From: Gammaproteobacteria bacterium Ga0074134
Lineage (GTDB): Bacteria; Pseudomonadota; Gammaproteobacteria; Ga0077554; Ga007554
Direction of reading: 5' to 3'
Length of the DNA: 64,000 nucleotides
NCBI GenBank assembly: GCA_001464965.1
Contig: LNEJ01000027.1
Span: 17,003 to 81,002, forward strand
The position numbers and the translations under genes are program-made. Positions 3,229 through 54,372 of the stretch are shown here, piece after piece. Positions within the stretch are counted from its first letter, which is position 1. Each line of letters begins with the position of its first letter. A model generated the notes under the pieces. It saw only the letters and a list, made by a program, of their open reading frames with translations. It did not search any database and was not told the origin of the DNA.

Positions 3229-3382
3229 GGGAACCTCTGATGTGTCAGGAGTTTCTCGGTACATGGGCGTGCCGGCATTTTCCATGCACGTCAAGTGATT
3301 GAAAAATGAAGAAAAGCAAAAATCACATATTTTGCTTTTCGTGCGCTGAGAATCCCAGTGTGGAATTATTCAGAGCTTTCGG
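3229..3382. repeat. intergenic structured repeat, family 1, copy A (hairpin ggaacctctga...tcaggag plus aatgaagaaaagcaaaaatcacat...ctgagaatcccag..ggaattattcagagc)
   Basis: Highly similar to 21626-21775 and 54223-54372; its second module matches 22913-22988; a shortened version is at 16546-16640. Confidence 0.6.
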
Positions 3383-3475
3383 TTAGATAAAGGGCTTGTT
3401 CCGTTATGGTGACGTCCCAATTATGAGACAGCGTACTGGAAAAAATTTTCTGATTTTGAGTACAATCGGGTCGCT

Positions 3476-3796
3476 ATGAAAGAAGGACAACAGGATAATC
3501 ATGACGATGGAGTGGCGCTGGAGGAGGCGAAGCCGAAGCTCAAGCGCCCGCCCATGTACAAGGTGCTGCTGCTGAACGATGACTACACGCCTATGGAGTT
3601 TGTCGTTCACGTATTAGAGGTCTTTTTTGCCATGAGCCTTGATCAAGCCACACAGGTCATGCTGCATGTGCATACACGAGGGGTGGGGGTATGCGGTCTT
3701 TTTACGCGCGATATTGCCGAGACCAAGGTGGCCCAGGTGACACAATTCGCACAGGAAAACCAGCACCCGTTGAAATGCACCATGGAAGAAGCATAG
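3476..3796 (+). CDS. clpS: ATP-dependent Clp protease adaptor ClpS
   Basis: [27 protein letters not shown] is the ClpS core. Confidence 0.9.
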
Positions 3797-3892
3797 ACTC
3801 ATTGCTCGACTGCATGGATGGACGAGGTAGGGCAACGCAGAGAGCAGTTGCCGGGAATTTTTTATTAAGTCTTCGGACAAGAGGTTAATCCC

Positions 3893-6160
3893 ATGTTAAG
3901 CAAGGACCTCGAATTCACGCTGAATATCGCCTTCAGAGAGGCGCGTGAGAAGTTGCACGAATTCATGACGGTCGAGCACTTGTTGCTCGCCTTGCTTGAT
4001 AATCCCGGGGCGGCTGCGGTATTGCGCGCTTGCGGCGCGGATCTCGACAGGCTGAAGAAAGATCTCGCCGCTTTTGTGGACGAGAGCACCCCGTTACTGC
4101 CCCCGCAGGATAAACGCGACACCCAGCCCACGCTGGGCTTTCAGCGGGTTCTGCAGCGCGCGGTGTTTCATGTGCAGTCCTCCGGAAAAAATGAAGTGCA
4201 GGCCGCCAACGTACTGGTCGCTATTTTCGGCGAGCAGGATTCACAGGCCGTCTACTTCCTCAACCGGCAGAACATCACGCGCCTGGACGTTGTGAATTAT
4301 ATCTCCCATGGCATCTCCAAGGTGCATGGCGAGGGCGAGGGGGCGCCGCACACGCCCTCCAGCGAGGACGAAGCGGGGGCAGAGGCGCCCGCCAAAAGCC
4401 CGCTTGAGCTCTATGCGGCCAATCTCAATCAGCTGGCCAGGCAGGGCAAGATCGACCCGCTGATCGGCCGCAAGCACGAAATCCAGCGCACCATCCAGAT
4501 CCTGTGCCGTCGCCGCAAGAATAACCCGCTGTTCGTCGGCGAGGCCGGCGTGGGCAAAACTGCGCTGGCCGAAGGGCTGGCGAAGATGATCATTGATGGC
4601 GAGGTGCCGGAGGTGCTGGCACATAGCACGGTGTATTCGCTGGATCTGGGCGCGCTGCTGGCGGGTACCAAGTATCGCGGTGATTTTGAAAAGCGCCTGA
4701 AAGGCGTGGTCAATCAGTTGCAGAAAGAAGCGGGCGCGATCCTGTTCATCGATGAGATTCATACCATCATCGGTGCGGGCGCAGCCTCCGGCGGGGTGAT
4801 GGACGCCTCTAACCTGATCAAGCCGGTGCTCGCCTCCGGTGCATTGAAGTGCATCGGTTCCACTACCTATCAGGAGTACCGCGGTGTTTTTGAGAAGGAC
4901 CGGGCCTTGGCGCGGCGTTTTCAAAAGATCGATGTGGCCGAACCCACGGTTGATGAGACGGTGCAGATTCTGGAAGGCCTGAAATCACGCTTTGAAGAGC
5001 ATCATCATGTCAAATACTCCAAGCAGGCGCTGCGTGTGGCGGCGGAACTGGCGGCGCGCTACATCAACGACCGTTATTTGCCCGACAAGGCGATTGACGT
5101 GATCGACGAGGTGGGGGCGAATCAGCACTTGCTGCCTGTCTCCAAACGCAAAAAAGTGATCGGCGCCAAGGAGATAGAGGACATCATCGCCAAGATTGCA
5201 CGTATTCCGCCCAAGAGCGTTTCCAGCTCCGACAAAGACGTGCTGCGCAATCTGGAGCGTGACCTGAAGATGCTGGTGTTTGGCCAGAACGATGCCATCG
5301 AGGCATTGGCATCTGCAATTAAGATGTCGCGGGCCGGCTTGGGCAATGCGCAAAAACCCATAGGCTCTTTCCTGCTCGCTGGCCCCACCGGCGTGGGCAA
5401 GACCGAAGTGACGCGCCAGCTTGCCAAGGTTATGGGGATCGAACTGATCCGCTTCGATATGTCCGAATACATGGAGCGCCATACCGTGTCGCGCCTGATC
5501 GGTGCGCCGCCGGGCTACGTGGGCTTTGACCAGGGCGGCCTATTGACCGAGGCGGTTACCAAGCACCCTCATGCGGTGCTGCTGCTGGATGAGATCGAGA
5601 AGGCGCATCCGGATGTTTTCAACATTCTATTGCAAGTGATGGATCATGGCACACTCACGGACAATAACGGGCGCAAGGCCGATTTCCGCAATGTGATCCT
5701 GATCATGACCACCAATGCCGGTGCGGATCAGATGAGCCGCAGTTCCATCGGTTTTGTACATCAGGATCATGCCAGCGACGGCACGGAGGCGATCAAGCGC
5801 TTGTTCAGCCCTGAATTCCGCAACCGCCTGGACGCCATTATCCAGTTCAAGCCGCTGGACAGCGCTACCATCGCCTTCGTGGTGGACAAGTTCATCATTG
5901 AGCTGGAGGCCCAGCTGGAAGATAAGAACGTGACACTCGAAGTCGACAATACCGCCCGGCAGTGGCTGGCCGAGCATGGTTATGACGAGAAAATGGGTGC
6001 GCGCCCGATGGCACGGATCATCCAGGAGCACATCAAGCGCCCCCTGGCCGAAGAACTGCTGTTTGGCAAGCTCGCGCGCGGCGGGCATATCCGCATCAGC
6101 GTAAGTGATGGCAAGCTGGCATTCGCGCTGGAAGGCGCGGAACAACTGCAGGAAAGTTAG
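3893..6160 (+). CDS. clpA: ATP-dependent Clp protease ATP-binding subunit ClpA
   Basis: 755 aa with two AAA+ modules (GEAGVGKT and GPTGVGKT) and the ClpA N-domain MLSKDLEFTLNIAFREAREKLHEFMTVEHLLLALL. Confidence 0.9.
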   Translation: MLSKDLEFTLNIAFREAREKLHEFMTVEHLLLALLDNPGAAAVLRACGADLDRLKKDLAAFVDESTPLLPPQDKRDTQPTLGFQRVLQRAVFHVQSSGKNEVQAANVLVAIFGEQDSQAVYFLNRQNITRLDVVNYISHGISKVHGEGEGAPHTPSSEDEAGAEAPAKSPLELYAANLNQLARQGKIDPLIGRKHEIQRTIQILCRRRKNNPLFVGEAGVGKTALAEGLAKMIIDGEVPEVLAHSTVYSLDLGALLAGTKYRGDFEKRLKGVVNQLQKEAGAILFIDEIHTIIGAGAASGGVMDASNLIKPVLASGALKCIGSTTYQEYRGVFEKDRALARRFQKIDVAEPTVDETVQILEGLKSRFEEHHHVKYSKQALRVAAELAARYINDRYLPDKAIDVIDEVGANQHLLPVSKRKKVIGAKEIEDIIAKIARIPPKSVSSSDKDVLRNLERDLKMLVFGQNDAIEALASAIKMSRAGLGNAQKPIGSFLLAGPTGVGKTEVTRQLAKVMGIELIRFDMSEYMERHTVSRLIGAPPGYVGFDQGGLLTEAVTKHPHAVLLLDEIEKAHPDVFNILLQVMDHGTLTDNNGRKADFRNVILIMTTNAGADQMSRSSIGFVHQDHASDGTEAIKRLFSPEFRNRLDAIIQFKPLDSATIAFVVDKFIIELEAQLEDKNVTLEVDNTARQWLAEHGYDEKMGARPMARIIQEHIKRPLAEELLFGKLARGGHIRISVSDGKLAFALEGAEQLQES

Positions 6161-6167
6161 TGTTGTG

Positions 6168-6190
6168 GGGGGAAGCCTTACCCCCTGCGC
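6168..6190. terminator. hairpin between the convergent clpA and infA genes (possible bidirectional terminator)
   Basis: A G6...C5 inverted repeat (gtggggggaagccttaccccctgc) lies between the two stop codons. There is no clear U-tract. Confidence 0.3.
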
Positions 6191-6209
6191 AACCGGCGGC
6201 TACGCGGAC

Positions 6210-6428: not shown

Positions 6429-6563
6429 GCAAATAATAGTGCTCTTGATGAATAATCATGGATGCCGAGCCAGGTTCACCCTGGCTTAATGAACCATTTT
6501 GCCTGAATCCAGTATGATTGGCAAAGTTTGTGTTATAAATTTGAGGTGCAATGTTTCTAAGCG

Positions 6564-8423
6564 GTGGCTGACAAACAAGATAAAGCAGAGGGCTATGGAA
6601 TGGTTCGTTGCATGGGCAGTAGTGGAGGCGGAAAAATCCTGAGGGTGATGTTTGCCTTGTTCGCCGTGGCGTCAGGGTTGCTGCTTGCGGGGTGCGGTTC
6701 CAGCGGAGGCGGTCCAAGTGGCGGGGGTGACACCACCAAGCCTTCCGTCATGCTCACCAGTCCTGCCAAGGATGCCACTGGCGTACCCGTCGCCGCCGTG
6801 CTTGCGGCTTCATTCTCCGAGGCCATGAAGGTTTCGACCATCTCCGATGTCACGTTCATCGTGAACGCGGGGAGTGACCAGGTTGCCGGAAAAGTCGCTT
6901 TCAGCGCGCTCTCCAATGCCGCGACTTTCACGCCCGATGCCCCCCTTAAGTACGATACAACCTATACCGTGACGATCAAGGCGGCGTCTGTAACGGATAT
7001 GTCAAACAATTCGTTGAATGCCAACTCGCCGGCGGGAGATTATGTCTGGAGCTTTACCACTACCCGGTCTGGCGCGGTGGATACCAGCTTTGGTGACGGT
7101 GGAACAGGTATAGGTACAGGTACAGGTAATGCCTCTGCCGCGATCACCCCATTTTCACCTCACGGCTCAAGTGAGGCTAGGTCCGTCGCCATCCAGCCGG
7201 ATGGTATGATCGTCGTCGCAGGTTCGGCGTGGAATGGCCGCGACTGGGATTTTGCGCTGGCTCGCTATAACCCGGAGGGCATCCTGGATACGACTTTTGG
7301 CCCGAATCGTACCGGTATAATGGTGCTTGATCTCGGCGGTGGTAAGCATGACATTGCGCAATCTCTGAAGATCGACACCAACGGCAAGATTGTGGTGGCG
7401 GGATTTGTTGCCAAAGGCCCCAACGACAACGACAACGACTTCGCCCTTGTGCGATTGAACCCGAATGGCACGCTTGATACCAATTTTGGAACGGACGGTA
7501 TCGTCACTACCGATTTCAACGGGCAGAATGATGTGGTTTATGCGCTTGCGATTCAGCCGGATGGGAAAATTGTTGTGGCGGGTTTTAGCAGTACGCGAGG
7601 TACGGCTACGTCTACCATCTTTGTTGATGCATACCAGGCCAATCCCATTATATTTGGAAGCGGTTTGACCGTATTCGATTTTGCGTTGGCCCGCTACGAC
7701 CAATCCGGCAAGCTTGATACCAGCTTCGGTAACGGGGGCATGGTCACCACGGCTGTTGGCGATAATGCCAGCGTTGCTCGTGCCATTGCTCTTCAAGCGG
7801 ACGGCAAGATTGTTGTGGCGGGGTATGCTGATCAGAACGCCCAAGCCAACTTCGCGTTGGCCCGCTTTGATGAGAACGGTAACCTGGATGCTGAGTTTGG
7901 CATTGGCGTCCGCGCTGGCAAGGTTATTACACCTATCGCGTCAGGCAAGGATAATGGAGCTCTGTCCGTGGCTATTCAGCCGGACGGCAAAATCGTCGCG
8001 GCCGGTACCGTTGAGAATGTTTTCGGCGGTACGGATTTCGGCCTTGCCCGCTATAACCGTGACGGTACTTTGGATAGCGATTTTGCGGGTGATGGCACAG
8101 TGATCACAGCCGTTGGCCCAAATGGCGGTGCCGTAGCTTTCGCTGTCACCGTTCAGGGGGATGGCAAGATCCTCACGGCGGGAGTGGCCTCAAATGGCAA
8201 GGACGATGATTTTGTCATGGTTCGCTATGGTGTGAATGGCTCTCTGGATAGCGGTTTTGGATTGGGTGGAAGGGTGACTACACCTGTGCGTTCCGGGGCG
8301 GATGTGGCATTTGCGGTAGCGATTCAGCCAGCGCTAGACAACAAGATCATCATGGCAGGAAGAAGCCTGCGCCCCAGCAATAATAGTATCTATGATTTCG
8401 CCCTGGTCCGTTATTGGCCATAA
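6564..8423 (+). CDS. lipoprotein with an N-terminal Ig-like (SbsA/Big_5-type) domain followed by about 8 delta-60-type beta-propeller repeats
   Basis: Lipobox LLLAGCGSSGG. The Ig-like segment is TTKPSVMLTSPAKDATGVP...YTVTIKAASVTDMSNNSL. The unit D(T/S)xFGxxG...A(I/L)AIQPDGKIVVAG...DFALARY recurs about every 55-60 aa. The true start may be M at 6600 or 6648. Confidence 0.6.
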   Translation: MADKQDKAEGYGMVRCMGSSGGGKILRVMFALFAVASGLLLAGCGSSGGGPSGGGDTTKPSVMLTSPAKDATGVPVAAVLAASFSEAMKVSTISDVTFIVNAGSDQVAGKVAFSALSNAATFTPDAPLKYDTTYTVTIKAASVTDMSNNSLNANSPAGDYVWSFTTTRSGAVDTSFGDGGTGIGTGTGNASAAITPFSPHGSSEARSVAIQPDGMIVVAGSAWNGRDWDFALARYNPEGILDTTFGPNRTGIMVLDLGGGKHDIAQSLKIDTNGKIVVAGFVAKGPNDNDNDFALVRLNPNGTLDTNFGTDGIVTTDFNGQNDVVYALAIQPDGKIVVAGFSSTRGTATSTIFVDAYQANPIIFGSGLTVFDFALARYDQSGKLDTSFGNGGMVTTAVGDNASVARAIALQADGKIVVAGYADQNAQANFALARFDENGNLDAEFGIGVRAGKVITPIASGKDNGALSVAIQPDGKIVAAGTVENVFGGTDFGLARYNRDGTLDSDFAGDGTVITAVGPNGGAVAFAVTVQGDGKILTAGVASNGKDDDFVMVRYGVNGSLDSGFGLGGRVTTPVRSGADVAFAVAIQPALDNKIIMAGRSLRPSNNSIYDFALVRYWP

Positions 8424-9142: not shown

Positions 9143-9855
9143 ATGTCGCAAGGCTCGCATTCAATCCGCCACGGCGCGGGGTGGCCTGGTATGTCACGCC
9201 ATTGTTCCAATAACTTCTTGAAGCCGGCGCGGCTGATATCCTCGGCTCCCAGGCTCTGCAAGTGGCCGGAGCCTACCTGGCAATCAATCACGGCATAGCC
9301 CCAGCGCTCAAGTTGGCGCACCAGGTGGACAAAGGCCACCTTGGAGGCATCCGTAACGCGGCTGAACATGGATTCACCGAAAAACACCCTGCCGATTGCG
9401 ATACCATAAAGTCCGCCCGCCAGCTCATCTCCGCGCCAGGCCTCTACGGAGTGGGCAATGCCCATCTCATGCAGGCGGCAATAGGCATCGAGCATCTCGC
9501 TGGTGATCCATGTGCCCGCGCCATCAGTGCGCGGCGCGGCGCAGCCCTGCATCACCTGACGGAAGGCGGTATCCAGTGTTACCTTGAATTCTCCCTTTTT
9601 GAGCGTCTTGCGCAGGCTGCGCGATACTTTCAGGCGTGATGGAAACAGAACGGCACGGGGGTCGGGGGACCACCAGAGTATGGGTTGCCCGTCACTGTAC
9701 CAAGGGAAAATGCCGCAGCGATAGGCATTGATCAGACGTGCGGGCGCGAGATCGCCACCCGCCGCCAGCAGGCCGTTCGGTTCGCGGAAGGCGTATTCAA
9801 CGGGGGGGAATGAATGCGCGCCGTTAGCGGGGTTTATCCAAAATAACGTGCTCAT
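9139..9855 (-). CDS. aat: leucyl/phenylalanyl-tRNA--protein transferase
   Basis: LLAAGGDLAPARLINAYRCGIFPWYSDGQPILWWSPDPRAVL is the Aat signature. Confidence 0.9.
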   Translation of the reverse strand: MSTLFWINPANGAHSFPPVEYAFREPNGLLAAGGDLAPARLINAYRCGIFPWYSDGQPILWWSPDPRAVLFPSRLKVSRSLRKTLKKGEFKVTLDTAFRQVMQGCAAPRTDGAGTWITSEMLDAYCRLHEMGIAHSVEAWRGDELAGGLYGIAIGRVFFGESMFSRVTDASKVAFVHLVRQLERWGYAVIDCQVGSGHLQSLGAEDISRAGFKKLLEQWRDIPGHPAPWRIECEPCDI

Positions 9856-9966
9856 GTCAGAACGCCGGTTCCAGGGAAACGAGGCCGCATTTCCAACTCC
9901 ATGAAATAAATGAAATTATTCCAATTGTCTGGATTTGATGCCGATATCTTGAGACAATTATAAAAG

Positions 9967-12342
9967 ATGTCATCCCAATCCTCTCAAAAAGATTCACCTT
10001 CCCCTCTTGGTCGTAACTGGTTTGCTCGCGGCTGGGGCAGCCCTGCTGTCAGGTATGTGCTGCTCATGGTGCTGCTGGCGGTGGTGGCTTATATCGCCTA
10101 TCTTGATCATACCGTGCGCAGCCAGTTCGAGGGTAACCGCTGGGCGCTGCCGGCGCAGGTTTATGCGCGCCCGCTCGAGCTTGTCCCTGATGCCCGCCTG
10201 AGTAGCGCGCAATTCGCGGAAGAGTTGCACATGCTGGGATATCGCCAGACCAAGGGCGAAAGGCTCACGGGCAGCTATGTGCGTAATGGGGACGAATTCC
10301 GGGTGGTGACGCGCCCCTTTACCTTTGGCGACGGCAGGGAAAATTCAGTTGCCTTGCGGGCGGTATTTTCCGCTGACCACCTGGTGAGTTTGCAGCACCT
10401 GGACAGTGGCAAGCCTCTGCCGCTGGTGCGTTTCGATCCTGTGCTGATCGGCAAAATCTACCCGGCGCACAATGAGGATCGGGTTTTTGTGCGCCTTAAA
10501 GAGGTGCCAGCTCCCCTCGTCAAGGGTTTGCTTGCCGTGGAAGACCGTAATTTCCGTGAACATCACGGCATAGACCCCATCGCCGTGGTGCGCGCCCTAT
10601 GGGCCGATGTGCGGGCGCGGGAGATGGTGCAGGGCGGCAGCACCTTGACCCAGCAGCTGGTGAAGAACTTTTTCCTCAGTAATGAACGCACCATGACGCG
10701 CAAGCTCAAGGAGGCCATCATGTCATGGCAGCTTGAGTGGCATTATGAGAAAGACGAGATATTTGAAGCCTATTGCAATGAAATCTACTTGGGGCAGTCC
10801 GGCAAGCACGCCATACACGGTTTTGGGCGCGCTAGCTGGTTCTATTTCCGCCGCCCGCTGAGCGATCTGCAGCTGCCCGAGTTGGCCCTGCTGGTGGGAT
10901 TGGTGCGCGGGCCGTCCTATTATGATCCGCGCCGTCATCCCGGACGTGCTCTTGCCCGCCGTAACCAGGTGCTGCAAATAATGGCGGAGCAGGGCGGCAT
11001 TACCGAAGCACAGGCACGCACCGCACAGGCCGCGCCGCTGGGTGTGACGGCCAAAGCGGCAAGCAGCGCAGCGCTTTCTCCCGCCTTCATAGATCTGGTG
11101 CGCCGCCAGTTGCGGCGCGATTATCAGGAACAAGACCTGAATTCGGCCGGTTTGCAAATCCTTACCACGCTCGACCCGCTGGTGCAAAACGCTGTGGCAG
11201 GCGCGATTAAAGGCCGTGTTGAAAGCCTGGAAAAACAGCAGCGCTTGCCTGCGGGCAGCCTGGAAGGGGCTGCGATTGTCACCAGCAGCGACGGTGGCGA
11301 AGTGCTGGCGGTGGCGGGTGGACGTGATGCCGACTCCACCGGTTTTAACCGTGTGCTGGATGCCAGGCGTCCCATCGGATCGTTGGTAAAGCCGGCCGTG
11401 TACCTCACTGCGCTGGCTAATCCCAAGAAATACACGTTGATCAGTCTGCTCGACGATGGTCCGCTGACACTCAAGAATCCCGGTGGGCAGCCCTGGAGGC
11501 CCTACAACTACGACCGGCAGTTTCATGGCTGGGTGCCTCTCAAAACCGCGCTGGCGCGCTCCTATAACCTCGCCACCGTGCGGCTGGGCATGGGCGTTGG
11601 CGTAAAGAATGTGCTGCATACGATGGAAAGCCTCGGAGTCAAGGAAAAGCTCAAGCCTTACCCTTCGGTGCTGCTTGGGGCCGCCGAACTGACGCCTTTC
11701 GAAGTCACTCAGATGTACCAGACGCTAGCCAGCGGCGGCTTCAACACCCCGTTGCGCGCCATTCGCGAGGTATTGAGCGTCGAGGGCAAACCGTTGCGGA
11801 GCTATGACATGACTGTCAAGCAGGCCTTTGATCCCGCCCCGGTCTATTTGCTCAATCGCGCGCTGCAGGATGTCATGCATAGCGGCACTGGGGTATCCCT
11901 GTACTCACGCGTGCCATGGTCATGGTCAGTGGCGGGAAAAACAGGTACTACCGATGATTTACGCGATAGCTGGTTTGCGGGATTCACCGGAGACCGGCTG
12001 GCGGTGGTGTGGATGGGCCGCGATGATAATCGCCCGACGGGGCTGAGCGGCGCGACCGGCGCATTACAGGCTTGGGGTGATGTTATGATGCGCATTGGCG
12101 CACAACCGTTGCGCCTGGAAGCGCCAAAAGGTATTGAGTGGGTCTGGATTGATCAACAGACACGCTTGCGCAGCATGGAGGGATGCGCGGGAGCCGCGCA
12201 GATGCCGTTTATGCGCGGCTCGGCCCCTGTGGAGATGGCGCCTTGCCTTGAGGGACCCGCCACTCCTGCCGATGCTGTTAGCGATACACTGAACAATGCA
12301 GTAGACAAAGCCGTTAACTGGCTCGACGAGGTATTGCGATGA
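9967..12342 (+). CDS. mrcB: penicillin-binding protein 1B (bifunctional glycosyltransferase/transpeptidase)
   Basis: 791 aa with an N-terminal TM helix, a UB2H-like segment, GT51 motifs (EDRNFREHHGID, GGSTLTQQL), and the transpeptidase SxxK/KTG motif (KTGTTDD). Confidence 0.9.
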   Translation: MSSQSSQKDSPSPLGRNWFARGWGSPAVRYVLLMVLLAVVAYIAYLDHTVRSQFEGNRWALPAQVYARPLELVPDARLSSAQFAEELHMLGYRQTKGERLTGSYVRNGDEFRVVTRPFTFGDGRENSVALRAVFSADHLVSLQHLDSGKPLPLVRFDPVLIGKIYPAHNEDRVFVRLKEVPAPLVKGLLAVEDRNFREHHGIDPIAVVRALWADVRAREMVQGGSTLTQQLVKNFFLSNERTMTRKLKEAIMSWQLEWHYEKDEIFEAYCNEIYLGQSGKHAIHGFGRASWFYFRRPLSDLQLPELALLVGLVRGPSYYDPRRHPGRALARRNQVLQIMAEQGGITEAQARTAQAAPLGVTAKAASSAALSPAFIDLVRRQLRRDYQEQDLNSAGLQILTTLDPLVQNAVAGAIKGRVESLEKQQRLPAGSLEGAAIVTSSDGGEVLAVAGGRDADSTGFNRVLDARRPIGSLVKPAVYLTALANPKKYTLISLLDDGPLTLKNPGGQPWRPYNYDRQFHGWVPLKTALARSYNLATVRLGMGVGVKNVLHTMESLGVKEKLKPYPSVLLGAAELTPFEVTQMYQTLASGGFNTPLRAIREVLSVEGKPLRSYDMTVKQAFDPAPVYLLNRALQDVMHSGTGVSLYSRVPWSWSVAGKTGTTDDLRDSWFAGFTGDRLAVVWMGRDDNRPTGLSGATGALQAWGDVMMRIGAQPLRLEAPKGIEWVWIDQQTRLRSMEGCAGAAQMPFMRGSAPVEMAPCLEGPATPADAVSDTLNNAVDKAVNWLDEVLR

Positions 12343-16248: not shown

Positions 16249-16545
16249 GACTCGCTCCTTTCGCGCCGTTGTGCGCGAGGTTCGCGGTTTAGCTATCCCT
16301 CAGTTCTTTTCTCTGAAATGTTGTTGTGTCCGCACGCATTTTCACGATCTTCGAAATCGCTTTTATCTTGTGATTAATAAACCATATTCAGAACATTATT
16401 TCTGTGACAAAGTTACATAAGATTGGCGGCGGATTGCGGTGCTTAATAAGCTTGTCATCAAGCAGTGATTAAGGTGATATAGGGCCGAAGTATGCTCTGG
16501 GGTGGCTTGCTTCCTGGCAGGGCGGTAGAGAATGGTTCTAAATTA

Positions 16546-16640
16546 AAGGAACCCATGATTAATCATGGGTTCCGCGACACAAGGAGGTACTCTGAGAATT
16601 CCAGGGTGAAATTACTCAGAGCTTCCTTAATAGGCTGTCA
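16546..16640. repeat. family 1 repeat, shortened copy B
   Basis: A perfect palindrome ggaacccatgattaatcatgggttcc is followed by ctctgagaattccagggtgaaattactcagagcttccttaat, which is shared with copy C. Confidence 0.45.
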
Positions 16641-19136: not shown

Positions 19137-19694
19137 ATGGCCCTTAAAGCAACTATTTTTAAAGCCGAACTGCAAATCGTCGACATGGATCGTAACTACT
19201 ACCACGATCATATCCTCACCATTGCCCAGCATTCATCGGAAACCGACGAGCGCATGATGGTGCGCTTATTGGCCTTTGTGCGGCACGCTCATGAGGCATT
19301 AGTGTTTGGCAAGGGACTGAGCGCCGATGATGAGCCAGACCTCTGGCAAAAGGATTTAACCGGCGCCATCGAAACCTGGATAGATGTGGGCTTGCCCGAC
19401 GAAAAACGGATTCGCAAAGCCTGTGGTCGCGCCCGGCATGTATTCATTTATAATTATGGCGGCCGTAGTGCTGATATCTGGTGGGATCAAAACAGCGGCA
19501 ATCTTGAACGGCTGAAAAATCTCACAGTGATAAACCTGCCAATGGCTGTAAGTCAATCCCTGGGGAAGCTGGCGCAGCGCAATATGCAGTTGCTATGTAC
19601 CGTGCAGGATGGGCAGATTTGGCTAGCCGACAAGAGCGACACGGTACAGGTAGACGTGGTGATGTTAAAAACCCCGTCGCCCCATTTACGTTGA
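19137..19694 (+). CDS. yaeQ: YaeQ-family protein
   Basis: MALKATIFKAELQIVDMDRNYYHDHILTIAQHSSETDERMMVRLLAF is the YaeQ N-terminal signature. Confidence 0.8.
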   Translation: MALKATIFKAELQIVDMDRNYYHDHILTIAQHSSETDERMMVRLLAFVRHAHEALVFGKGLSADDEPDLWQKDLTGAIETWIDVGLPDEKRIRKACGRARHVFIYNYGGRSADIWWDQNSGNLERLKNLTVINLPMAVSQSLGKLAQRNMQLLCTVQDGQIWLADKSDTVQVDVVMLKTPSPHLR

Positions 19695-19707
19695 TAAACT
19701 GAAAAAG

Positions 19708-19877
19708 CCATGACAAATATTATTGTTGCTGCCTTATACAAATTTGCAAACGCTGTGAAAAGGCCACATCCTTCATGCTGGAGCAGGGATTCGAAGAGGT
19801 CTACCACCTGCAAGGCAGTATTCTAAAATATCTGGAAAAGATCCCCGCTGAAAAAAGCCTGTGGTAAGGCGGATGTT
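19708..19877 (+). pseudogene. internally deleted remnant of trhO (first 13 codons fused to about 115 nt of the 3' end)
   Basis: 19708-19748 matches 21984-22024 and 19749-19877 matches 22530-22655 of the intact trhO. About 500 bp are missing and the frame is broken. Confidence 0.6.
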
Positions 19878-20070
19878 TTTTGAAATTTGCCGGGAAAGCG
19901 CAATGTACCTGGAAAAGGACTCTGTTTTTGAGGCCGCTACGAATATAAACTCTAACAATCGCATGTGCGCGGATGGTAAAAAGCACCGCTCGTTCTTCAC
20001 TCTGCTTTTTGCTGGCGGTGATGCGAAACGTTAGCCAACACGCGACATCTACCACCAAAGGAGATATACC

Positions 20071-21528
20071 ATGAGTGACAAAAAGAAGCTGACCACCAAT
20101 GCTGGCTGTCCAGTAGCTCATAATCAGAACGTAATGACAGCCGGGCCACGTGGCCCGCAATTGCTGCAGGATGTCTGGTTCCTGGAAAAACTCGCCCATT
20201 TTGATCGCGAAGTGATCCCCGAACGACGCATGCACGCCAAGGGATCCGGTGCCTATGGCACGTTTACCGTTACGCACGACATTACGCAGTACACGCGGGC
20301 TAAAATCTTTTCCCAGATTGGCAAGAAAACTGAGCTATTCGCGCGTTTCACCACGGTGGCCGGTGAGCGTGGCGCGGCCGATGCCGAGCGCGACATTCGC
20401 GGTTTTGCCGTCAAGTTTTACACCGAGGAAGGCAACTGGGATATGGTCGGTAACAATACCCCGGTATTCTTCCTGCGTGATCCGCTCAAGTTCCCCGACC
20501 TGAACCACGCAGTCAAGCGCGACCCGCGCACCAATATGCGCAGCGCGAAGAACAACTGGGATTTCTGGACGTCCCTGCCGGAAGCCCTGCACCAGATCAC
20601 CATTGTCATGAGTGACCGTGGCATTCCGGCGACTTACCGGCACATGCACGGCTTCGGCAGCCACACTTTCAGCTTCATCAACGCAAAGAACGAGCGGTAC
20701 TGGGTCAAATTCCACTTCAAGTCGCAACAGGGCATCAGGAACTTGACCGATGCGGAAGCCGAGGCGATCATCGGCAAGGACCGCGAGAGCCATCAGCGCG
20801 ACCTCTACGAGAGCATCGAAAAGGGTGACTGCCCGAAATGGACGCTGATGGTGCAGATCATGCCTGAAGCCGACGCCGCGAAGGTGCCCTATAACCCCTT
20901 CGACCTCACTAAGATCTGGCCACACAAAGACTATCCGCTGATCGAGGTGGGCGTAATGGCGCTGAACCGCAATCCTGAAAACTTCTTCGCCGAAGTCGAA
21001 CAGTCGGCTTTCAATCCCGCCAACATTATACCGGGCATTGGTTTCTCGCCGGACAAGATGTTGCAGGGGCGGCTCTTCGCCTACGGTGATGCGCAGCGCT
21101 ATCGGCTAGGCGTGAATCACCACCTCATCCCCGTCAATGCTGCGCGCTGCCCCGTGCACAACTACCACCGCGACGGCACGATGCGCACCGATGGCAACTT
21201 TGGCAGCACGCTCGGCTACGAGCCCAACGACCAAGGCGAATGGGCTGAACAGCCGGACTACAGCGAACCACCGCTGGCGCTCTCGGGTGCCGCCAACCAC
21301 TGGAACCACCGTGAAGACAGCGACTATTACTCACAACCCGGCGCGCTGTTCCGTTTGATGAGTCCTGCACAGCAGCAGGTGTTGTTTGACAATACCGCGC
21401 GTTCCATTGGTGGAGCGCCTCACGGCATCCAGATTCGGCATGTTGGCAACTGCCTCAAGGCCGATCCTGCTTATGGCGAAGGCGTAGCCAAAGCACTGGG
21501 TATTTTGTTGAGTGAAATTCCGAGATAA
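20071..21528 (+). CDS. katA: monofunctional haem catalase (small-subunit, clade 3 type)
   Basis: 485 aa with [18 protein letters not shown]-type motifs ([24 protein letters not shown]) and the distal His/Asn and proximal Tyr regions. Confidence 0.9.
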
Positions 21529-21544
21529 ACAGTGCCGGTTAATT

Positions 21545-21650
21545 TCACGGTTATGCACCGTTCAGCATGGGCAGATTTGGCTGGCCGATAAGGACTGTGC
21601 GGTGCAGGTAGACTTGATGATGTTAAGGAACCTCTGAATAATGCAGAGGT
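21545..21650 (+). pseudogene. duplicated fragment of the yaeQ 3' end
   Basis: Translates to ...CTVQDGQIWLADK..VQVD.MML, about 80% nt identity to 19598-19665. The remainder of the yaeQ tail (cccatttacg) resumes at about 21927 after the inserted repeats. Confidence 0.5.
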
Positions 21651-21775
21651 TCCTCGGTACATGGAGGTGCTGGCATTTTTCGATCACGGAAAGTGATTTT
21701 AAAATGAAGAAAAGAAAAAACACACTATGCTTTTCGTGCTCTGAGAATTCCAGGATGGAATGATTCAGAGCTTCC
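21626..21775. repeat. family 1 repeat, copy C (full)
   Basis: Perfect hairpin ggaacctctgaataatgcagaggttcc plus the aatgaagaaaag...ctctgagaattccaggatggaatgattcagagcttccttaat module. Confidence 0.6.
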
Positions 21776-21926
21776 TTAATCCTACTGTGTCACAAAGCTA
21801 TCAAGGGATTGCAGCGCAAGGCAAAGTCGGGCGAAAAAGCGGAGTTTACATGGAGTAAATGAGCACAAGAGTCCGATTTTAACGCCGTAATGCGCCCTTC
21901 AGCGCTTTGTGACACAGTAGGATTAA
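21776..21926. repeat. 151-bp MITE-like element with perfect 23-bp terminal inverted repeats (ttaatcctactgtgtcacaaagc / gctttgtgacacagtaggattaa)
   Basis: The TIRs were read directly. The element abuts family 1 copy C and splits the duplicated yaeQ tail. Confidence 0.55.
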
Positions 21927-21983
21927 AAAACCCGTGGTCCCATTTACGGCCCCCTTGCTTTGTTTGATAGACTTAAAAAATCC

Positions 21984-22913
21984 ATGACAAATATTATCGT
22001 TGCTGCCTTGTACAAATTTGCAAAACTGCCTGACTACCGGGACATGCAGCCGGGTATGCTCGATTTTTGCGTCGCACAAGGGCTGAAGGGAACCCTGCTG
22101 CTTGCTGCCGAAGGCATTAACGGCACCGTCGCAGGCACCCGTGCCGGGATTGATGCCCTGATTGCATTTCTGCGCGCGGATGCGCGGCTTGCGGACTTGG
22201 AGCACAAGGAATCTTATGCCGCTGAAATGCCTTTTTACAGGATGAAGGTTCGCCTGAAAAAGGAAATCGTCACGCTGGGTGTGCCGGGCGTCGATCCAAA
22301 CGAGAAGGTCGGTATCCGGGTGGCCCCGGAAGATTGGAATGCCCTGATCTCTGACCCTGATGTGGTACTGATTGATACACGAAATGGCTATGAATACGAT
22401 ATTGGCACTTTTCGCGGTGCGGTTGATCCCGATACTGATACATTCCGCGAATTTCCGGACTATGTCAGCAAAAACCTCGACCCCGTAAAACATAAAAAGG
22501 TCGCCATGTTTTGCACCGGCGGCATTCGCTGTGAAAAAGCCACATCCTTCATGCTGGAGCAGGGATTCGAAGAGGTCTATCACCTGCAAGGTGGTATTCT
22601 AAAATATCTGGAAAAGATCCCCGCTGAAAAAAGCCTGTGGGAAGGCGAATGTTTTGTGTTTGACCAGCGTGTGGCTGTCGGGCATGGTCTGGCATTGGGT
22701 GAATATGACCAATGCCATGCCTGCCGTTACCCCGTGTCTCCACAAGAAAAAGCCTCGCCAAAATACCAGGAGGGCATATCCTGTCCACACTGTTTCGACT
22801 CTCTGACGGAAGAGAAGCGCGTCAGCTCGGCGGAGCGGCAAAAACAAGTCGAGTTGGCGCTCAAGCGGGGCACGGCACACCTCGGTGCGCCGCAGAAAAA
22901 GCGAGGCGCTTAA
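21984..22913 (+). CDS. trhO: rhodanese-domain tRNA U34 hydroxylase TrhO (YceA family)
   Basis: [18 protein letters not shown]... with the rhodanese active-site CTGGIRCEK and a C-terminal Cys cluster. Confidence 0.8.
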
Positions 22914-22988
22914 TGAGGAAAAGCAAAAATCATATTTTTTGCTTTTCGTGCTCTGAGAATTCCAGGATGGAATTATTCAGAGCTTTCT
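22913..22988. repeat. family 1 repeat, copy D (module 2 only)
   Basis: aatgaggaaaagcaaaaatcatattttttgcttttcgtgctctgagaattccaggatggaattattcagagc begins at the trhO stop codon. Confidence 0.5.
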
Positions 22989-29241: not shown

Positions 29242-29685
29242 ATGGATAGCCTGCCCTCATTTTTGCGTGATAGCGAAGCCGCCGGGATGTATTTGCTTGA
29301 TACGGCGATTACCGCGATGGAGTTTGAAAGCGAGGCCAGGAAGTGTGGCTTCGCTTTTTTTTATCTGGAAGGAGGGAGCATCCTCAGTAAGGAGCAATTT
29401 TTGGAGCAGATCGCCCGCGCCATGGATTTTCCCGGCTATTTCGGTGGCAACTGGGACGCACTGGAAGACTGTCTCACGGATCTATCCTGGCGTGAAGCAC
29501 CAGGTTATGTGATTCTATACGACCATTTTGATGTTTTTGCCGAGCAGTTTCCGGATCAGTTCGAGACCGCGCTGGAAATTCTGGATGCGTCCATAGAGTT
29601 CTGGCGCGCGCAAGGTAAGCCGCTGTTTGTCATGTTGCGCGGAAAGGGTGGGCCGGAGTGGGGGTTGAAGCTGCTTACCTTCTAA
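29242..29685 (+). CDS. barstar-family ribonuclease inhibitor
   Basis: Barstar motifs ...FGGNWDALEDCLTDL... The start codon is 3 nt after the RNase stop. Confidence 0.75.
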   Translation: MDSLPSFLRDSEAAGMYLLDTAITAMEFESEARKCGFAFFYLEGGSILSKEQFLEQIARAMDFPGYFGGNWDALEDCLTDLSWREAPGYVILYDHFDVFAEQFPDQFETALEILDASIEFWRAQGKPLFVMLRGKGGPEWGLKLLTF

Positions 29686-29687
29686 GA

Positions 29688-29800
29688 ACCCTGTTCACGA
29701 TCTCGCTGAAGGGTGCATCGCGGCGTTAAAAATAGCCTCAAAATGCTCACATACTCCGTGTATGCTGCGCTTTTTCGGCTATTTTTGCCTTAACGGAGTG
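29688..29800. repeat. family 2 repeat (left half: gaaccctgttcacgatctcgctgaagggtgcatcgcggcgttaaaa...ctcaaaatgctcacatactc...)
   Basis: Matches the left TIR and core of the full copy at 36866-37008. The right TIR is absent. Confidence 0.45.
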
Positions 29801-34843: not shown

Positions 34844-34848
34844 GCCAG

Positions 34849-35112
34849 AGCCTATCCGTAAATAAATCACCCCTGCGTTGCCGCCCCAAAACGCGCCAGG
34901 CAAGGCGCGAGGAGAGAAATTTGGTGATTCCAAATGAACGACGAGCAACGCCGCCTGGCGTGTTTTGGGGCGCAACCCGAAGGGACGGGGCCGGTTTTGA
35001 GCAGTGCGGCGTCACGCTTCGCTCATGTGCAACAAGCACACTACGCTCAGCCTTCCTTGCCCTGCTCAAAACCGGTCTCCGTCGCAGGGATGATTTATTT
35101 ACGGATAGGCTC
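34849..35112. mobile_element. 264-bp MITE-like element with about 30-bp terminal inverted repeats, copy 1
   Basis: gagcctatccgtaaataaatcacccctgcg ... cgcagggatgatttatttacggataggctc. The interior is the reverse complement of the interior of the 46461-46726 copy. Confidence 0.65.
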
Positions 35113-35116
35113 TAAC

Positions 35117-35584
35117 ATGCGTTTCGCGCTCGTCAGTGAACGGATTTTGTTGACCCTGTGGGTCGGTGGCCTGTGGGGTATCGGTTACCTCGCCGTGCCG
35201 GTGCTGTTTAATATGCTCAATGACCGGCAGTTGGCAGGGGAGCTTGCCGGGAAAATGTTCAGCATCACCAGCATCATAGGTTTGGTGTTCGGCGTTTTGC
35301 TGTTGATAGGCGCGATTTACCGGGCGGGCGACAAATGGACCCGTGCCTGGCGGGTGTGGACGCTGTTCGCCATGCTGGCGTTTGTTGCCGTCAGTTTCTT
35401 TGTTTTGCAGCCGATGATGCAGGACCTCAAAGCCCATGGTCTGGTTGAAGGCAGCGCCCAGGCGGCGAGCTTTGGACGGCTGCACGGAATTTCGTCGATA
35501 CTGTATCTGGCGACCAGCCTGCTGGGGGTGGGGCTGGTGATTGCAGGTCCAGGCGGGAAACGGCCTTCCAGGTATACGCTTTAG
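35117..35584 (+). CDS. DUF4149-family integral membrane protein
   Basis: Four predicted TM helices, MRFALVSERILLTLWVGGLWGIGYLAVPVLF... The start lies immediately after the MITE, and the ORF-track 5' extension is MITE sequence. Confidence 0.6.
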   Translation: MRFALVSERILLTLWVGGLWGIGYLAVPVLFNMLNDRQLAGELAGKMFSITSIIGLVFGVLLLIGAIYRAGDKWTRAWRVWTLFAMLAFVAVSFFVLQPMMQDLKAHGLVEGSAQAASFGRLHGISSILYLATSLLGVGLVIAGPGGKRPSRYTL

Positions 35585-35618
35585 AGCCGGTTCACGATCT
35601 CGCTGAAGGGCGCCCCGC
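35584..35618. repeat. family 2 repeat, short fragment (ggttcacgatctcgctgaagggcgc)
   Basis: Matches the left TIR region of 36866-37008. Confidence 0.3.
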
Positions 35619-36865: not shown

Positions 36866-37008
36866 TAGAACCTGTTCACGATCTCGCTGAAGGGCGCATC
36901 GCGGCGTTAAAAGTGGCCTCAAAATGCTCACATACTCGTGTATGCTCCGCTTTTTCGGCCACTTTTGCCTTGCGCTGCATCCCTTGATCGAGATCGTGAA
37001 CAGGTTCT
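36866..37008. repeat. family 2 repeat, full copy with 19-bp terminal inverted repeats (gaacctgttcacgatctcg / cgagatcgtgaacaggttc) and nested internal hairpins
   Basis: The inverted ends were read directly. Inner stem gtggcc...ggccac. Confidence 0.55.
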
Positions 37009-46378: not shown

Positions 46379-46460
46379 GCCTTTGAGTAAGCAAAATATG
46401 AGCCAATCGGAATGTGAAAGCGCAGTTAAGGAGCTTGTGAAAAGCCGAGCCTATTTCTGA

Positions 46461-46726
46461 GAGCCTGTCTGTGAATAAATCATCCCTGCGACGGAGGCTG
46501 GTTTTGCGCAGGGCAAGGAACGCTGAGCGTAGTGTGCTTGTTGCACATGAGCGAAGCGTGACGCCGCACCGCGCAAAACCGGCCCCGTCCCTTCGGGTTG
46601 CTCCCCAAAACACGCCATGCGGCGTTGCTCGTCGTTTATTTGGAATCACCAAACTTCTCTCCTCGCGCCTTGCCTGGCGTGTTTTGGGGAGCAACGCAGG
46701 GATGATTTATTCACAGACAGGCTCTC
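46461..46726. mobile_element. 264-bp MITE-like element, copy 2 (inverted relative to copy 1)
   Basis: TIRs gagcctgtctgtgaataaatcatccctgcg / cgcagggatgatttattcacagacaggctc. Sits in the divergent flgA / cheV promoter region. Confidence 0.65.
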
Positions 46727-46735
46727 AGATATTGC

Positions 46736-49644: not shown

Positions 49645-49668
49645 GCAAGTCGTCCAAGGAGAAAATTT

Positions 49669-50343: not shown

Positions 50344-50370
50344 TTAGGTTTTTACAAGAGGATAAACGAT

Positions 50371-51648: not shown

Positions 51649-51673
51649 TGATAGATAATCGCGAGCGATAACC

Positions 51674-52414
51674 ATGGACCGCATGCTTTATGTCGCAATG
51701 TCCGGTGCCAAGCAGACCATGCTGGCACAGGCGGTGAACACCAATAATATGGCGAATGTGAACACCACTGGATTCCGCGCTGATCTAGAAGCGTTTCGCA
51801 GCCTCCCGGTGTATGGCCCAGGATACCCCAGCCGGGTGTATGCGCAGACGGAAAGGCCGGGAACGGATTTTCTTGCCGGGACATTTTCCACCACCGGACG
51901 TGAACTTGATGTTGCGGTTAATGGTGATGGATGGATCGCTGTGCAGGCCGCGGATGGCAGCGAAGCATATACCCGTGCCGGTGATTTGCGCGTGACGGTC
52001 AACGGCCAACTGGAAACTGGAGCGGGACGTCCGGTGATTGGCAACGGCGGACCGATCGCCGTCTCTCCATTCGAAAAACTGGAGATCGGTGCCGATGGCA
52101 CAATCTCGATTCGACCCGTGGGGCAAGCGCCTAACGCATTGGCAGTGGTGGATAGAATCAAGCTGGTAAATCCGCCGCCGGGTCAGATGGAGAAAGGCAC
52201 GGATGGTCTGATGCGTGTCAAAGACGGGAAGAACGCTGTGGCGGATGCAGCAGTGCAGTTGTCTAGCGGTGTGCTCGAGTCGAGCAATGTCAATGCCGTG
52301 GAGGCGATGGTGAGAATGATCGAGCTGGGGCGCCAGTTCGAAACGCAGATCAAAATGATGCGCACCGCACAGGAAAACGACGCCGCTTCGTCGCAATTGA
52401 TGCGAATGGGTTAG
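51674..52414 (+). CDS. flgF: flagellar basal-body rod protein FlgF
   Basis: [35 protein letters not shown]. Confidence 0.9.
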   Translation: MDRMLYVAMSGAKQTMLAQAVNTNNMANVNTTGFRADLEAFRSLPVYGPGYPSRVYAQTERPGTDFLAGTFSTTGRELDVAVNGDGWIAVQAADGSEAYTRAGDLRVTVNGQLETGAGRPVIGNGGPIAVSPFEKLEIGADGTISIRPVGQAPNALAVVDRIKLVNPPPGQMEKGTDGLMRVKDGKNAVADAAVQLSSGVLESSNVNAVEAMVRMIELGRQFETQIKMMRTAQENDAASSQLMRMG

Positions 52415-52654
52415 TAACCTTTCACGGTTTCTCTTTCAACATGAGAAGGCGTGATCAACAAAAGACACGAAAGGTACTAAAAAATGGATGGTGGGATTTT
52501 TTATGGAAATGAGCCTGGATTTGTCAGGCATATTCGAAAGAAATAGTTGAAAGCATTGCGCCATGAGGATTTTTCGTACTTTTCGTGTCTTTCGTGGACG
52601 GATTTGTAACATCAATATCTGAACCAGAATTTTTTATTTAAAAAGGAGCACTCA

Positions 52655-53440
52655 ATGAATCCCGCACTATGGATTGCCAAGACTGGTCTTGACTCACAGC
52701 AGACGCGCATGGCGGTTATCTCCAACAACCTGGCCAACGTCAACACCACCGGATTTAAGCGCGGCAGGGCGGTGTTCGAGGATCTGCTCTATCAGAATGT
52801 ACGACAAGTGGGAGCACAGAGTACGCAAGAGACAACATTGCCATCCGGCTTGTTGCTCGGTACTGGTGTGCGCACGGTGGCCACGCAAAAGCTATTTACG
52901 CAAGGCAATATCGTACAAACCGGTAATCCCCTGGATATGGGGATTCAGGGGCGTGGTTTTTTCCAGGTGTTGACGCCGGATGGTGCGCTGGGGTACACGC
53001 GCGATGGTTCATTTCAAGTGAATGCACAAGGGCAGCTTGTCACCGCCAGTGGCTACGTGGTGCAACCCGCAATCAGCATTCCTGAGAATGCACAGAGCAT
53101 CACCGTGGGTTCCGATGGCACAGTGGGAGTGCTGTTGCCGGGTTCAACCGCACCGACGCAGGTGGGCTCAATACAGTTGGCGGATTTCATCAATCCCGTG
53201 GGCTTGCAGCCGATTGGCCAGAATGTATACCGCGAGTCTGCCGCCAGCGGTTCCCCGCAAACCGGTGCGCCGGGTGTGACAGGCTTGGGCACCTTGGCGC
53301 AGGGATCAGTGGAAAGTTCCAATGTCAATGTTGTGGAAGAGCTGGTCAATATGATTGAAACCCAGCGTGCATACGAGATGAATTCTAAAGCCATTGCTTC
53401 CGCTGATCAGATGTTGCGGTTCGTGACAAATAATTTGTAA
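52655..53440 (+). CDS. flgG: flagellar basal-body distal rod protein FlgG
   Basis: [35 protein letters not shown]. Confidence 0.9.
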
Positions 53441-53507
53441 TAACAGTAATCGGCGGCAAGGATGTTGCATATTTCTAAGTGTTGACGGGATTCAGTGAGC
53501 AGAGAGA

Positions 53508-54224
53508 TTGGAAATGAAACAGATCAAGAAGTATTTGTCTGTCCTGTTGGGGTTGCTGATGCTGGCGGGTTGTACCACCACTCCGCCGCAGAGTGATCCC
53601 GCCTATGCACCGGCGCGCCCCGCCACGCCGCCGCCCACCACACGAAGCAATGGCGCCATTTATCAGGCAGGGTATGGTCTTGCGCTGTTCGAGGACAACA
53701 AGGCGCGCCGTGTCGGCGACATACTTACCGTGATACTGGTAGAAAAGACCGATGCCAGCAAGACAGCGGGCACGAATTCCAAGAAGAAGACCGGAGTGGA
53801 TGTTTCCGCGCCCGTCATTCTAGGGTCCGCGCTGACATTCGGCGCGCCGGGGCTGATCCCGTTGGCTAGCAATGTTAATAATGATTTGAGTGCCAAGCTG
53901 AATTCTAACCAGACTTTTTCGGGGCAGGGTGATAGCAATCAAAGCAACAGCCTGAATGGACGCATCAGTGTCACGGTGTCCGAGGTCTTGCCGAACGGCA
54001 ATCTGGTGGTGCGCGGCGAAAAGCTGCTGGCCATCAATCAGGGTAATGAATATGTGCGGTTTTCCGGGATTGTCCGCCCGGTCGATATTCAACGTGATAA
54101 CACCTTGCTGTCGAGTCTGGTGGCGGATGCCAAGATCACCTATGCCGGTGACGGCGTGATTGCCGATTCCAATACCTCGGGATGGCTGGCGAGATTCTTT
54201 AACAGTGGTTGGTGGCCTTTTTAA
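53508..54224 (+). CDS. flgH: flagellar L-ring lipoprotein FlgH
   Basis: Lipobox LMLAGCTT and the FlgH core. Confidence 0.9.
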   Translation: MEMKQIKKYLSVLLGLLMLAGCTTTPPQSDPAYAPARPATPPPTTRSNGAIYQAGYGLALFEDNKARRVGDILTVILVEKTDASKTAGTNSKKKTGVDVSAPVILGSALTFGAPGLIPLASNVNNDLSAKLNSNQTFSGQGDSNQSNSLNGRISVTVSEVLPNGNLVVRGEKLLAINQGNEYVRFSGIVRPVDIQRDNTLLSSLVADAKITYAGDGVIADSNTSGWLARFFNSGWWPF

Positions 54225-54372
54225 GGAACCTCTGATTTATTAGAGGTTCTGTGTGGTGCATGGACGCACCGCCATTTCTCGAACACGTACGTGTTCGAGA
54301 AATGAAGAAAAACAAAAATCACATTTTTCGTCTCTGAAAAATCCAGGGATGGATTTTTCAGAGTTCCCTTAA
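54223..54372. repeat. family 1 repeat, copy E (between flgH and flgI)
   Basis: Hairpin ggaacctctgatttattagaggttc plus aatgaagaaaaacaaaaatcacat...ctctgaaaaatccagggatggatttttcagag. Confidence 0.55.

Follow-up and report, generated by a model that had tools for sequence, protein, structure and literature searches.

Family 1, a five-hairpin intergenic repeat of uncultured Gammaproteobacteria with the features of a TTAA-targeting MITE

Introduction

The described repeats nearest in behaviour to the one reported here are the Correia elements (CREE/NEMIS) of Neisseria, with ERIC also close, and the nearest in insertion chemistry are the IS5-group insertion sequences. We analysed a stretch of 64,000 nucleotides from Gammaproteobacteria bacterium Ga0074134 (assembly GCA_001464965.1, contig LNEJ01000027.1, positions 17,003 to 81,002, forward strand), called the window below, within which all Family 1 positions are numbered. 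A sequence-only reading of the window had pointed to a structured intergenic repeat, Family 1, and had offered two descriptions of it, a REP/MITE-like mobile unit or a family of small RNAs or terminators. [quoted passage not shown] The family is new but belongs to an already known kind of element, the bacterial MITE, and we found no published description of it in the open-access literature.

Family 1 and the Correia elements are both non-coding, about 150 bp long, bounded by terminal inverted repeats with a short target duplication, present in many copies and mostly intergenic, often lying beside genes; both have a recurrent internally deleted short form, and transcripts of both would fold into stable hairpins. 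The two share no sequence similarity, however, and their hosts differ (Neisseria vs. uncultured Gammaproteobacteria). Correia elements duplicate TA, whereas the Family 1 duplication is 4 bp long and centred on TTAA, and they fold mainly through their long terminal repeats, whereas Family 1 folds through five local, covarying hairpins. Correia elements act on mRNA via RNase III cleavage and also affect transcription (PMC10969869). The ERIC/IRU elements of enterobacteria are imperfect palindromes in intergenic regions, about 127 bp in length; they are co-transcribed with their neighbours and influence mRNA stability via RNase E in an orientation-dependent manner (PMC10969869). They too lack sequence similarity to Family 1, consist of a single long imperfect palindrome and have another host range.

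REP and BIME sequences, which are served by RAYT transposases, are short, abundant and hairpin-forming intergenic repeats, as Family 1 is (PMC2817692). REPs, however, have neither terminal inverted repeats around a body nor a target duplication, and Family 1 has both. IS5 of Escherichia coli K-12 starts with GGAAGGT and is flanked by a 4-bp duplication (TTAG, GGAAGGTGCGAA...TTCGCACCTTCC, TTAG). The ends of Family 1 and its 4-bp duplication most resemble those of the IS5 group, in which ends begin GGAAGG/GA and the duplication is likewise made at a TA-centred tetranucleotide, a likeness that may point to an IS5-like transposase. One Family 1 subfamily starts GGAAGGTCTGA, and it is only in this subfamily that GGAAGGT is shared.

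Results

Terminal repeats, target duplications and empty sites

Loci carrying Family 1 (L numbers) were collected from 185,579 species-representative genomes, which were scanned for a degenerate pattern that describes the right-hand hairpin (the H5 pattern). At least 114 loci in at least 25 genome assemblies were found. Inverted repeats form the ends of the element, with GGAA(C/G)CTCTGA at the left and TCAGAG(C/G)TTCC at the right, and in many copies the match reaches about 18 bp (GGAAsCTCTGAWTWATTC, also written GGAAsCTCTGAATAATTC). The repeat had been described as bipartite, with two modules; we find instead five serial hairpins, H1 to H5, together with the terminal inverted repeats. H1 is the left terminus folded on an internal complement, and the inner half of the right terminus contributes to H5.

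Among the loci listed, 97 copies have both ends, and an exact 4-bp direct repeat adjoins the ends in 68 of them, vs. 0-2 of 97 when the right boundary was shifted by 1-3 bases in either direction. The duplicated word is most often TTAA (27 copies), followed by CTAA (8), TTAT (5), TAAA and TTTA (4 each), the others being mostly one-base variants of TTAA. Some duplications are not palindromic (TCAA, GTAA, CGAG and CTTT) and the repeats are therefore direct repeats rather than an extension of the inverted repeat. The YTAR spectrum of the IS5 group fits 39 of the 68 duplications; TTAA dominates, and many of the remaining words are one-base variants of it.

Two sites were found in both the empty and the filled state. 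The first lies within the window, where the junction of yaeQ and trhO occurs twice. The empty paralogous junction (19661-19690) has a single TTAA and reads gatgTTAAaaaccccgtcgccccatttacg (in short form, gatgTTAAaaacc), whereas the filled junction reads gatgTTAA, copy 3 of Family 1, TTAA, a different MITE (21780-21922) and TTAAaaaacccgtggtcccatttacg, the flanking end being TTAAaaaacc. The insertion point of copy 3 is the TTAA that ends the yaeQ fragment, and the copy is flanked by TTAA on both sides (21623-21626 and 21776-21779). Two elements have entered one TTAA at this junction, each duplicating it. The similarity between the flanks of the empty and filled junctions was also found in our repeat scan, as repeats D11 and D16.

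The second empty site is at the end of flgH in the closest relative, L121 (GCA_021731145.1), whose FlgI protein is 95% identical and whose flg cluster has about 90% DNA identity to that of the window. The flgH stop of L121 has a single TTAA and reads ggcctttTTAAaaaatgacaagttgggtacatgaa, where the window reads ggcctttTTAA, copy 5 and TTAAtaacaggttgggtgcatgaa; the megablast alignment of the two sequences breaks exactly at copy 5. Two more distant relatives, L123 and L125, also lack a copy between flgH and flgI, although L123 has weaker Family 1 copies in other flg spacers. Copy 5 must therefore have been inserted recently and is no conserved feature of the operon, and this lineage-specific pattern speaks against the earlier suggestion that it could act as an operon attenuator. 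As for the label REP/MITE-like, its MITE half holds in view of the terminal inverted repeats, the 4-bp target-site duplications and the empty sites, while its REP half fails because duplications are present.

Conservation of the hairpins

The five-hairpin structure was written by hand from folds of single sequences and then tested on 67 distinct full-length copies; RNAalifold alone paired the two termini with each other instead of forming H1 and H5. In the alignment of these copies, 93.3% of the cells in paired positions can pair, vs. 32-53% when the partners were slid by 1-3 columns. Changes on both sides of a pair occur in 26 of 55 pairs (257 cells), and none of 500 shuffles reached any of these measures. 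Most compensatory changes are in H3 and H4; at pair 95-123, for example, 31 copies have GC, 22 have AU and 11 have CG.

The loops behave differently from one another. Those of H1 and H3 drift, while H4 has AAAYCRCRUUU as its loop. In almost all copies the loop of H2, taken together with the pairs that close it, is ACA-N-GGA-N-GU, with the forms ACAGGGAUGU and ACAAGGAUGU. The H5 apex is CAGGAUG or CAGGGAUG on a stem that covaries; it should be noted that the conservation of H5 is inflated by the use of the H5 pattern to find the loci, while that of H2 is unaffected. When the copies were clustered at 88% identity, G-U pairs outnumbered A-C mismatches in H3 (27:8) and H4 (23:7), with near parity in H1 (22:21) and a ratio of 4:7 in H5. 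Two species-level genomes, L072 and L098, have one orthologous copy in common; its left end has decayed, and its H2-H5 are 96% identical vs. about 89% in the flanks.

Copies within the window

To score the window we used R1, a covariance model of Family 1 built from the 67 copies in other genomes. Five copies were found, all on the plus strand and with no other credible match (Table 1): three are full-length, one is internally deleted and one is 5′-truncated. All five copies named by the sequence-only reading are real, and lie at or within 1-3 bases of where it had placed them. The H5 pattern likewise matched five times, vs. 0.00 matches expected from 100 dinucleotide-preserving shuffles, and a 37-mer with at most 3 mismatches matched three times, vs. 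0 expected. Fold z-scores of single copies against shuffles were -6.9 and -10.4. The shared strand of the five copies is compatible with chance (two-sided p about 0.06 by our own arithmetic).

Table 1. Family 1 copies and the empty site in the window, with scores of the covariance model R1
Feature	Position	Strand	Description	R1 score (bits)
Copy 1	3230..3380	+	full-length, H1-H5, decayed	122.0
Copy 2	16548..16626	+	short form: H1, 5′ part of H2, H5	41.7
Copy 3	21623..21779 including flanks (element 21627..21775)	+	full-length	122.9
Copy 4	22912..22987	+	5′-truncated, H4 and H5 only	75
Copy 5	54221..54372 including flanks (element 54225..54368)	+	full-length	102.8
Empty site	19665..19668	+	single TTAA in the paralogous yaeQ-trhO junction	

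Copy 1 has mutations in the 3′ arm of H1 and in the H5 apex (CAGTGTG), and its flanking 4-mers no longer match (TCAG / GGTT). It had been placed downstream of cspA; that gene is on the minus strand (2862-3077), and the copy lies in the promoter region between it and the divergent clpS (3476-3796, plus strand), upstream of both. Copy 2, previously taken for a form with the first module only, has lost H3 and H4 in an internal deletion bounded by two GTGC words and keeps H1, part of H2 and H5. Its H1 stem carries a compensated change (CCCATGA/TCATGGG). The TTAA on its right (16627-16630) contains the stop codon of lpxH, which is on the minus strand, and on its left a TTAA (16543-16546) is followed by one extra A. 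The same architecture was seen at L014, L015, L024, L038, L077, L110 and L114.

Copy 4 occupies the entire 78-bp spacer between the convergent genes trhO (stop codon 22911-22913) and selO (stop codon 22992-22994, minus strand), and the trhO stop codon is within the TTAA that adjoins the copy. Its flanks show no matching duplication (TTAA / TATA). Copy 4 keeps H4 and H5 of a 5′-truncated element; the same form is present at L026 and L099. R1 also aligned the 3′ end of trhO (22832-22911) to H1-H3, an extension that was rejected since the score is that of copies elsewhere with H4 and H5 only. Copy 5 belongs to a divergent subfamily, its nearest relative being the copy at L078 (89% identical). It is flanked by TTAA at 54221-54224, which holds the flgH stop codon, and at 54369-54372, and stops 19 nt short of the start codon of flgI. 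The window copies are insertions of different ages, copies 3 and 5 being recent and intact and copies 1 and 4 old or decayed, and none of them is a conserved regulatory site of the host.

The yaeQ-trhO junction that holds copy 3 is duplicated around a catalase gene (20071-21528). The region (19137-22913) has, in order, full yaeQ, two trhO fragments (19702-19750 and 19746-19882), the catalase gene, a yaeQ 3′ fragment (21552-21626) and full trhO. The arrangement resembles the outcome of an insertion or a duplication by which the catalase gene was introduced or framed.

Distribution and variants of Family 1

Among the matches listed, nearly all carriers are metagenome-assembled genomes (MAGs) of Gammaproteobacteria from groundwater, biocathodes, sediments and similar sources; the others listed are two Halothiobacillus MAGs, one Lysobacterales MAG and one Wenzhouxiangellaceae MAG. 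When these loci were compared with the window, the element alone aligned (82-97% identity) and the flanks did not. Subfamilies are largely genome-specific. The window itself originates from an activated-carbon metagenome, and several assemblies of it break just upstream of flgI, at copy 5, as is expected at a multi-copy repeat. A blastn search of a plasmid collection with the consensus element gave no match, nor did a scan of viral contigs with the H5 pattern.

We looked for an RNA family and for a strand bias, both of which would bear on the proposal of small RNAs or terminators. Rfam 15 at gathering score found only two tRNAs in the whole window, and in the region 21560-21960, with E-values up to 10, only chance-level matches, none of them like the CsrB, RsmY or RsmZ models; no RNA family in Rfam fits Family 1. 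Orientation relative to neighbouring genes is unbiased: of 97 copies with open reading frames (ORFs) on both sides, 26 are in sense tandem, 26 in antisense tandem, 28 between convergent and 17 between divergent ORFs. Together with the lack of a conserved U-tract, these results leave the proposal without support.

No ORF is present inside Family 1 copies. Full-length forms are 144-151 bp long and short forms 45-85 bp. The short forms that recur in other genomes are H1+H2+H5 (about 80 bp), H4+H5 and, smallest of all at about 45 bp, the terminal repeats with H5. Longer variants of 162-218 bp (L023, L034, L029, L085, L017, L049, L060, L036 and L003) have an extra G+C-rich hairpin, located either between H2 and H3 or at the H4 loop, which it then replaces or extends. 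Family 1 evolves through the gain and loss of hairpin modules. A 501-bp copy at L028 (2086-2586) contains other palindromic repeats; its pair of ends was considered as a possible autonomous element and rejected, being a MITE with other repeats nested inside. A second such pair of ends, at L049 (OZ251218.1, 1813-3076), was also rejected, being two Family 1 copies on either side of a single short-chain dehydrogenase gene. The two are in the same orientation, with TTAA outside both outer ends, and may have come to lie there by chance or else form a composite unit.

Other repeats in the window

At least four MITE-like families, Family 1 included, are present in the 64-kb window. The element that shares its TTAA with copy 3 (21780-21922, 143 bp) is unrelated to Family 1. 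It has inverted ends of about 30 bp (TCCTACTGTGTCACAAAGC...), is bounded by TTAA at 21776-21779 and 21923-21926, and does not occur at the paralogous site (19665-19668). Two other stretches, 36885-36979 and 29704-29731, are similar to its core. The former is part of an element at 36867-37008, downstream of an FtsJ-like methyltransferase gene, that has 28-bp inverted ends (AGAACCTGTTCACGATCTCGCTGAAGGG), flanks that look like a 3-bp TTA duplication, and partial copies at 29677-29756 and 35574-35618. These two elements share a core but differ in their ends; those of the element at 36867-37008 begin GAACCTGT, somewhat like GGAACCTCT of Family 1. A further element of about 270-280 bp is present in two copies of opposite orientation (34847-35113 and 46453-46732), with inverted ends of 31-38 bp (AGAGCCTATCCGTAAATAAATCACCCCTGCG); the two copies are 94% identical over 230 nt. 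It is at 46723, the inner end of the second copy, that the window begins to align with L121.

The flg operon contains a third kind of insertion, of about 165 bp, between flgF and flgG (52431-52595), with 29-bp inverted arms at 52455-52483 and 52570-52598. It is absent from L121, whose spacer reads ttctctttgaccagaa. L121 in turn has a different palindromic element (GTAGGTTGGGTCAAG...CTTGACCCAACCTAC) in its flgH-flgI spacer (L121 positions 9850-9990), just upstream of flgI and with ATGAA on both sides. This spacer holds another repeat family in L121 and has therefore been struck independently. Lastly, the gene at 6564-8423 has internal repeats of about 180 bp that encode DUF5122 beta-propeller repeats, together with a Big_5 domain; it accounts for repeat families D1, D5, D13 and D14 of our scan and is unrelated to Family 1.

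Discussion

That Family 1 is a MITE, which we consider very probable, would account for its position at gene ends in a simple way. On insertion, 4 bp of target are duplicated, with a preference for TTAA or a one-base variant of it, and in this genome of about 55% G+C many such sites fall on a TAA stop codon or within AT-rich spacers. Copies would abut gene ends without damage because duplication at TTAA regenerates the stop codon. Mobilisation would presumably take place in trans, through a DDE transposase whose gene lies elsewhere.

Several observations weigh against this reading. No pair of element ends encloses a transposase in the window or the collected loci (ends 350-4000 bp apart, with matching 4-mers). 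The ORFs upstream of four copies with no detectable left end are ordinary genes, such as those for a cation antiporter and a subtilase. A tblastn search with E. coli IS5 InsH gave no match in about 1 Mb of loci (8-kb stretches around copies), and all-against-all megablast of the loci showed no IS-like long repeats. What Family 1 shares with IS5 amounts to 7-8 terminal bases and a duplication of equal length, and the targets of Family 1, with TTAA far ahead of CTAA, TTAG and CTAG, differ from the textbook YTAR spectrum of the IS5 group. Nor, to our knowledge, do IS5 ends form foldbacks like those of H1 and H5. In addition, a MITE that is purely selfish and decays neutrally would not be expected to show strong internal covariation or to conserve motifs in its loops, and the excess of G-U pairs in H3 and H4 taken together (50 to 15) hints at a strand-specific, single-stranded form that double-stranded cut-and-paste transposition does not explain.

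The covariation might be a by-product of DNA mechanics, in which template-switch correction of quasi-palindromes and gene conversion maintain the hairpins and nothing beyond the terminal repeats has a function; we hold this to be possible, though on the whole unlikely. Intrastrand template switching corrects quasi-palindromes to perfect palindromes, and all five hairpins are DNA palindromes, so that such repair would restore pairing. The compensated H1 change private to copy 2, which departs from the right-end repeat, fits with this, as does the largely genome-specific nature of the subfamilies, which is expected from a few master copies and conversion. Left unexplained are the constancy of the H2, H4 and H5 loops vs. 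the drift of those of H1 and H3, and the confinement of the G-U over A-C asymmetry to H3 and H4. A further reading involves RNA. The two GGA-loop hairpins of each copy, H2 (ACA-N-GGA-N-GU) and H5 (CAGGAUG), fit the pattern of CsrA/RsmA-binding RNA, with GGA (ANGGA) in the loops of at least two hairpins; the consensus from systematic evolution of ligands by exponential enrichment (SELEX) is RUACARGGAUGU, with ACA and GGA invariant and GGA in a hairpin loop (PMC4347634). The two H2 forms match the core of this consensus exactly, and the H5 apex is borne on a covarying stem. The MITE might then carry a selected RNA module with candidate CsrA/RsmA sites that ties neighbouring genes to Csr/Rsm or titrates the protein; the G-U excess in H3 and H4 and the better preservation of H2-H5 than of the flanks in the L072/L098 copy are consistent with this. 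We nevertheless regard such a module as improbable. Orientation with respect to flanking ORFs is random, and sense copies are not better kept than antisense ones (paired fraction 0.902 vs. 0.893; H2 motif in 20/25 vs. 14/21). The H2 motif is kept in only 2 of the 4 window copies that retain H2, the H2 pattern alone is not enriched in the window, the conservation of H5 is partly an artefact of the search, and the motif match was noticed after the fact. CsrB, RsmY and RsmZ also have several hairpins with GGA in the loop, and the H2 and H5 apices fit the CsrA consensus, but Family 1 shows no homology or Rfam match to them, has no conserved promoter or terminator of its own, contains only two GGA hairpins per copy and is dispersed as a transposon in either orientation.

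Two other explanations were considered. An element recognised as single-stranded hairpins, whether a REP/REPIN served by RAYT or an IS200/IS605 derivative, would be in keeping with the many hairpins with conserved loops and with the hint of top-strand specificity in the G-U vs. A-C counts of H3 and H4. Such elements, however, have neither target duplications nor terminal inverted repeats, and in Family 1, 68 of the 97 two-ended copies have exact 4-bp duplications of variable sequence and the terminal repeats are clear, while at the empty sites one TTAA has become two; we find this explanation scarcely credible. Almost as hard to sustain is the idea that the host keeps the copies at gene ends as intrinsic terminators or attenuators, or as small RNAs that are transcribed independently. 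It draws on the frequent abutment of stop codons, which the TTAA target explains, and on the G+C-rich H2 stem followed by CAUUUU in the commonest subfamilies. In subfamilies with a covarying H3 stem, however, the T-run is replaced by CAAAAT, CACTAC or GAATCC; orientation to the upstream gene is random, copies are also found in divergent promoter regions (copy 1 in the window, and 17 cases overall), Rfam offers no match, and copy 5 would have to be read through if flgI uses the operon promoter.

A MITE that is co-transcribed with its neighbours, as copy 5 would be between flgH and flgI, may still alter mRNA processing or stability through its long hairpins, by analogy with Correia and ERIC elements, and an incidental effect of copy 5 on the flg transcript is possible. 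The stronger proposal, that Family 1 is a mobile structured-RNA package whose H2 (ACARGGAUGU) and H5 (CAGGAUG) hairpins would bind CsrA/RsmA when transcribed, is in our view a long shot. If it were true, each insertion would place the gene beside it, such as flgI, under Csr/Rsm control or enlarge a sponge for the protein that spans the genome, and the compensatory changes and the G-U bias of the middle hairpins would reflect selection on Family 1 RNA.

As a MITE, Family 1 is ordinary in kind; what is unusual about it is the preservation of its hairpins and their candidate CsrA-like loops. It explains assembly breaks and "structured intergenic" signals, and accounts for most of the differences in spacer length between close relatives in the clade. 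Its compensatory hairpin changes make it a usable system for asking whether structure is selected for transposition, for host tolerance or for RNA function. Spread over at least 25 species-level genomes, Family 1 provides a clean bacterial example of a TTAA-targeting MITE that duplicates 4 bp and lands on stop codons without destroying them.

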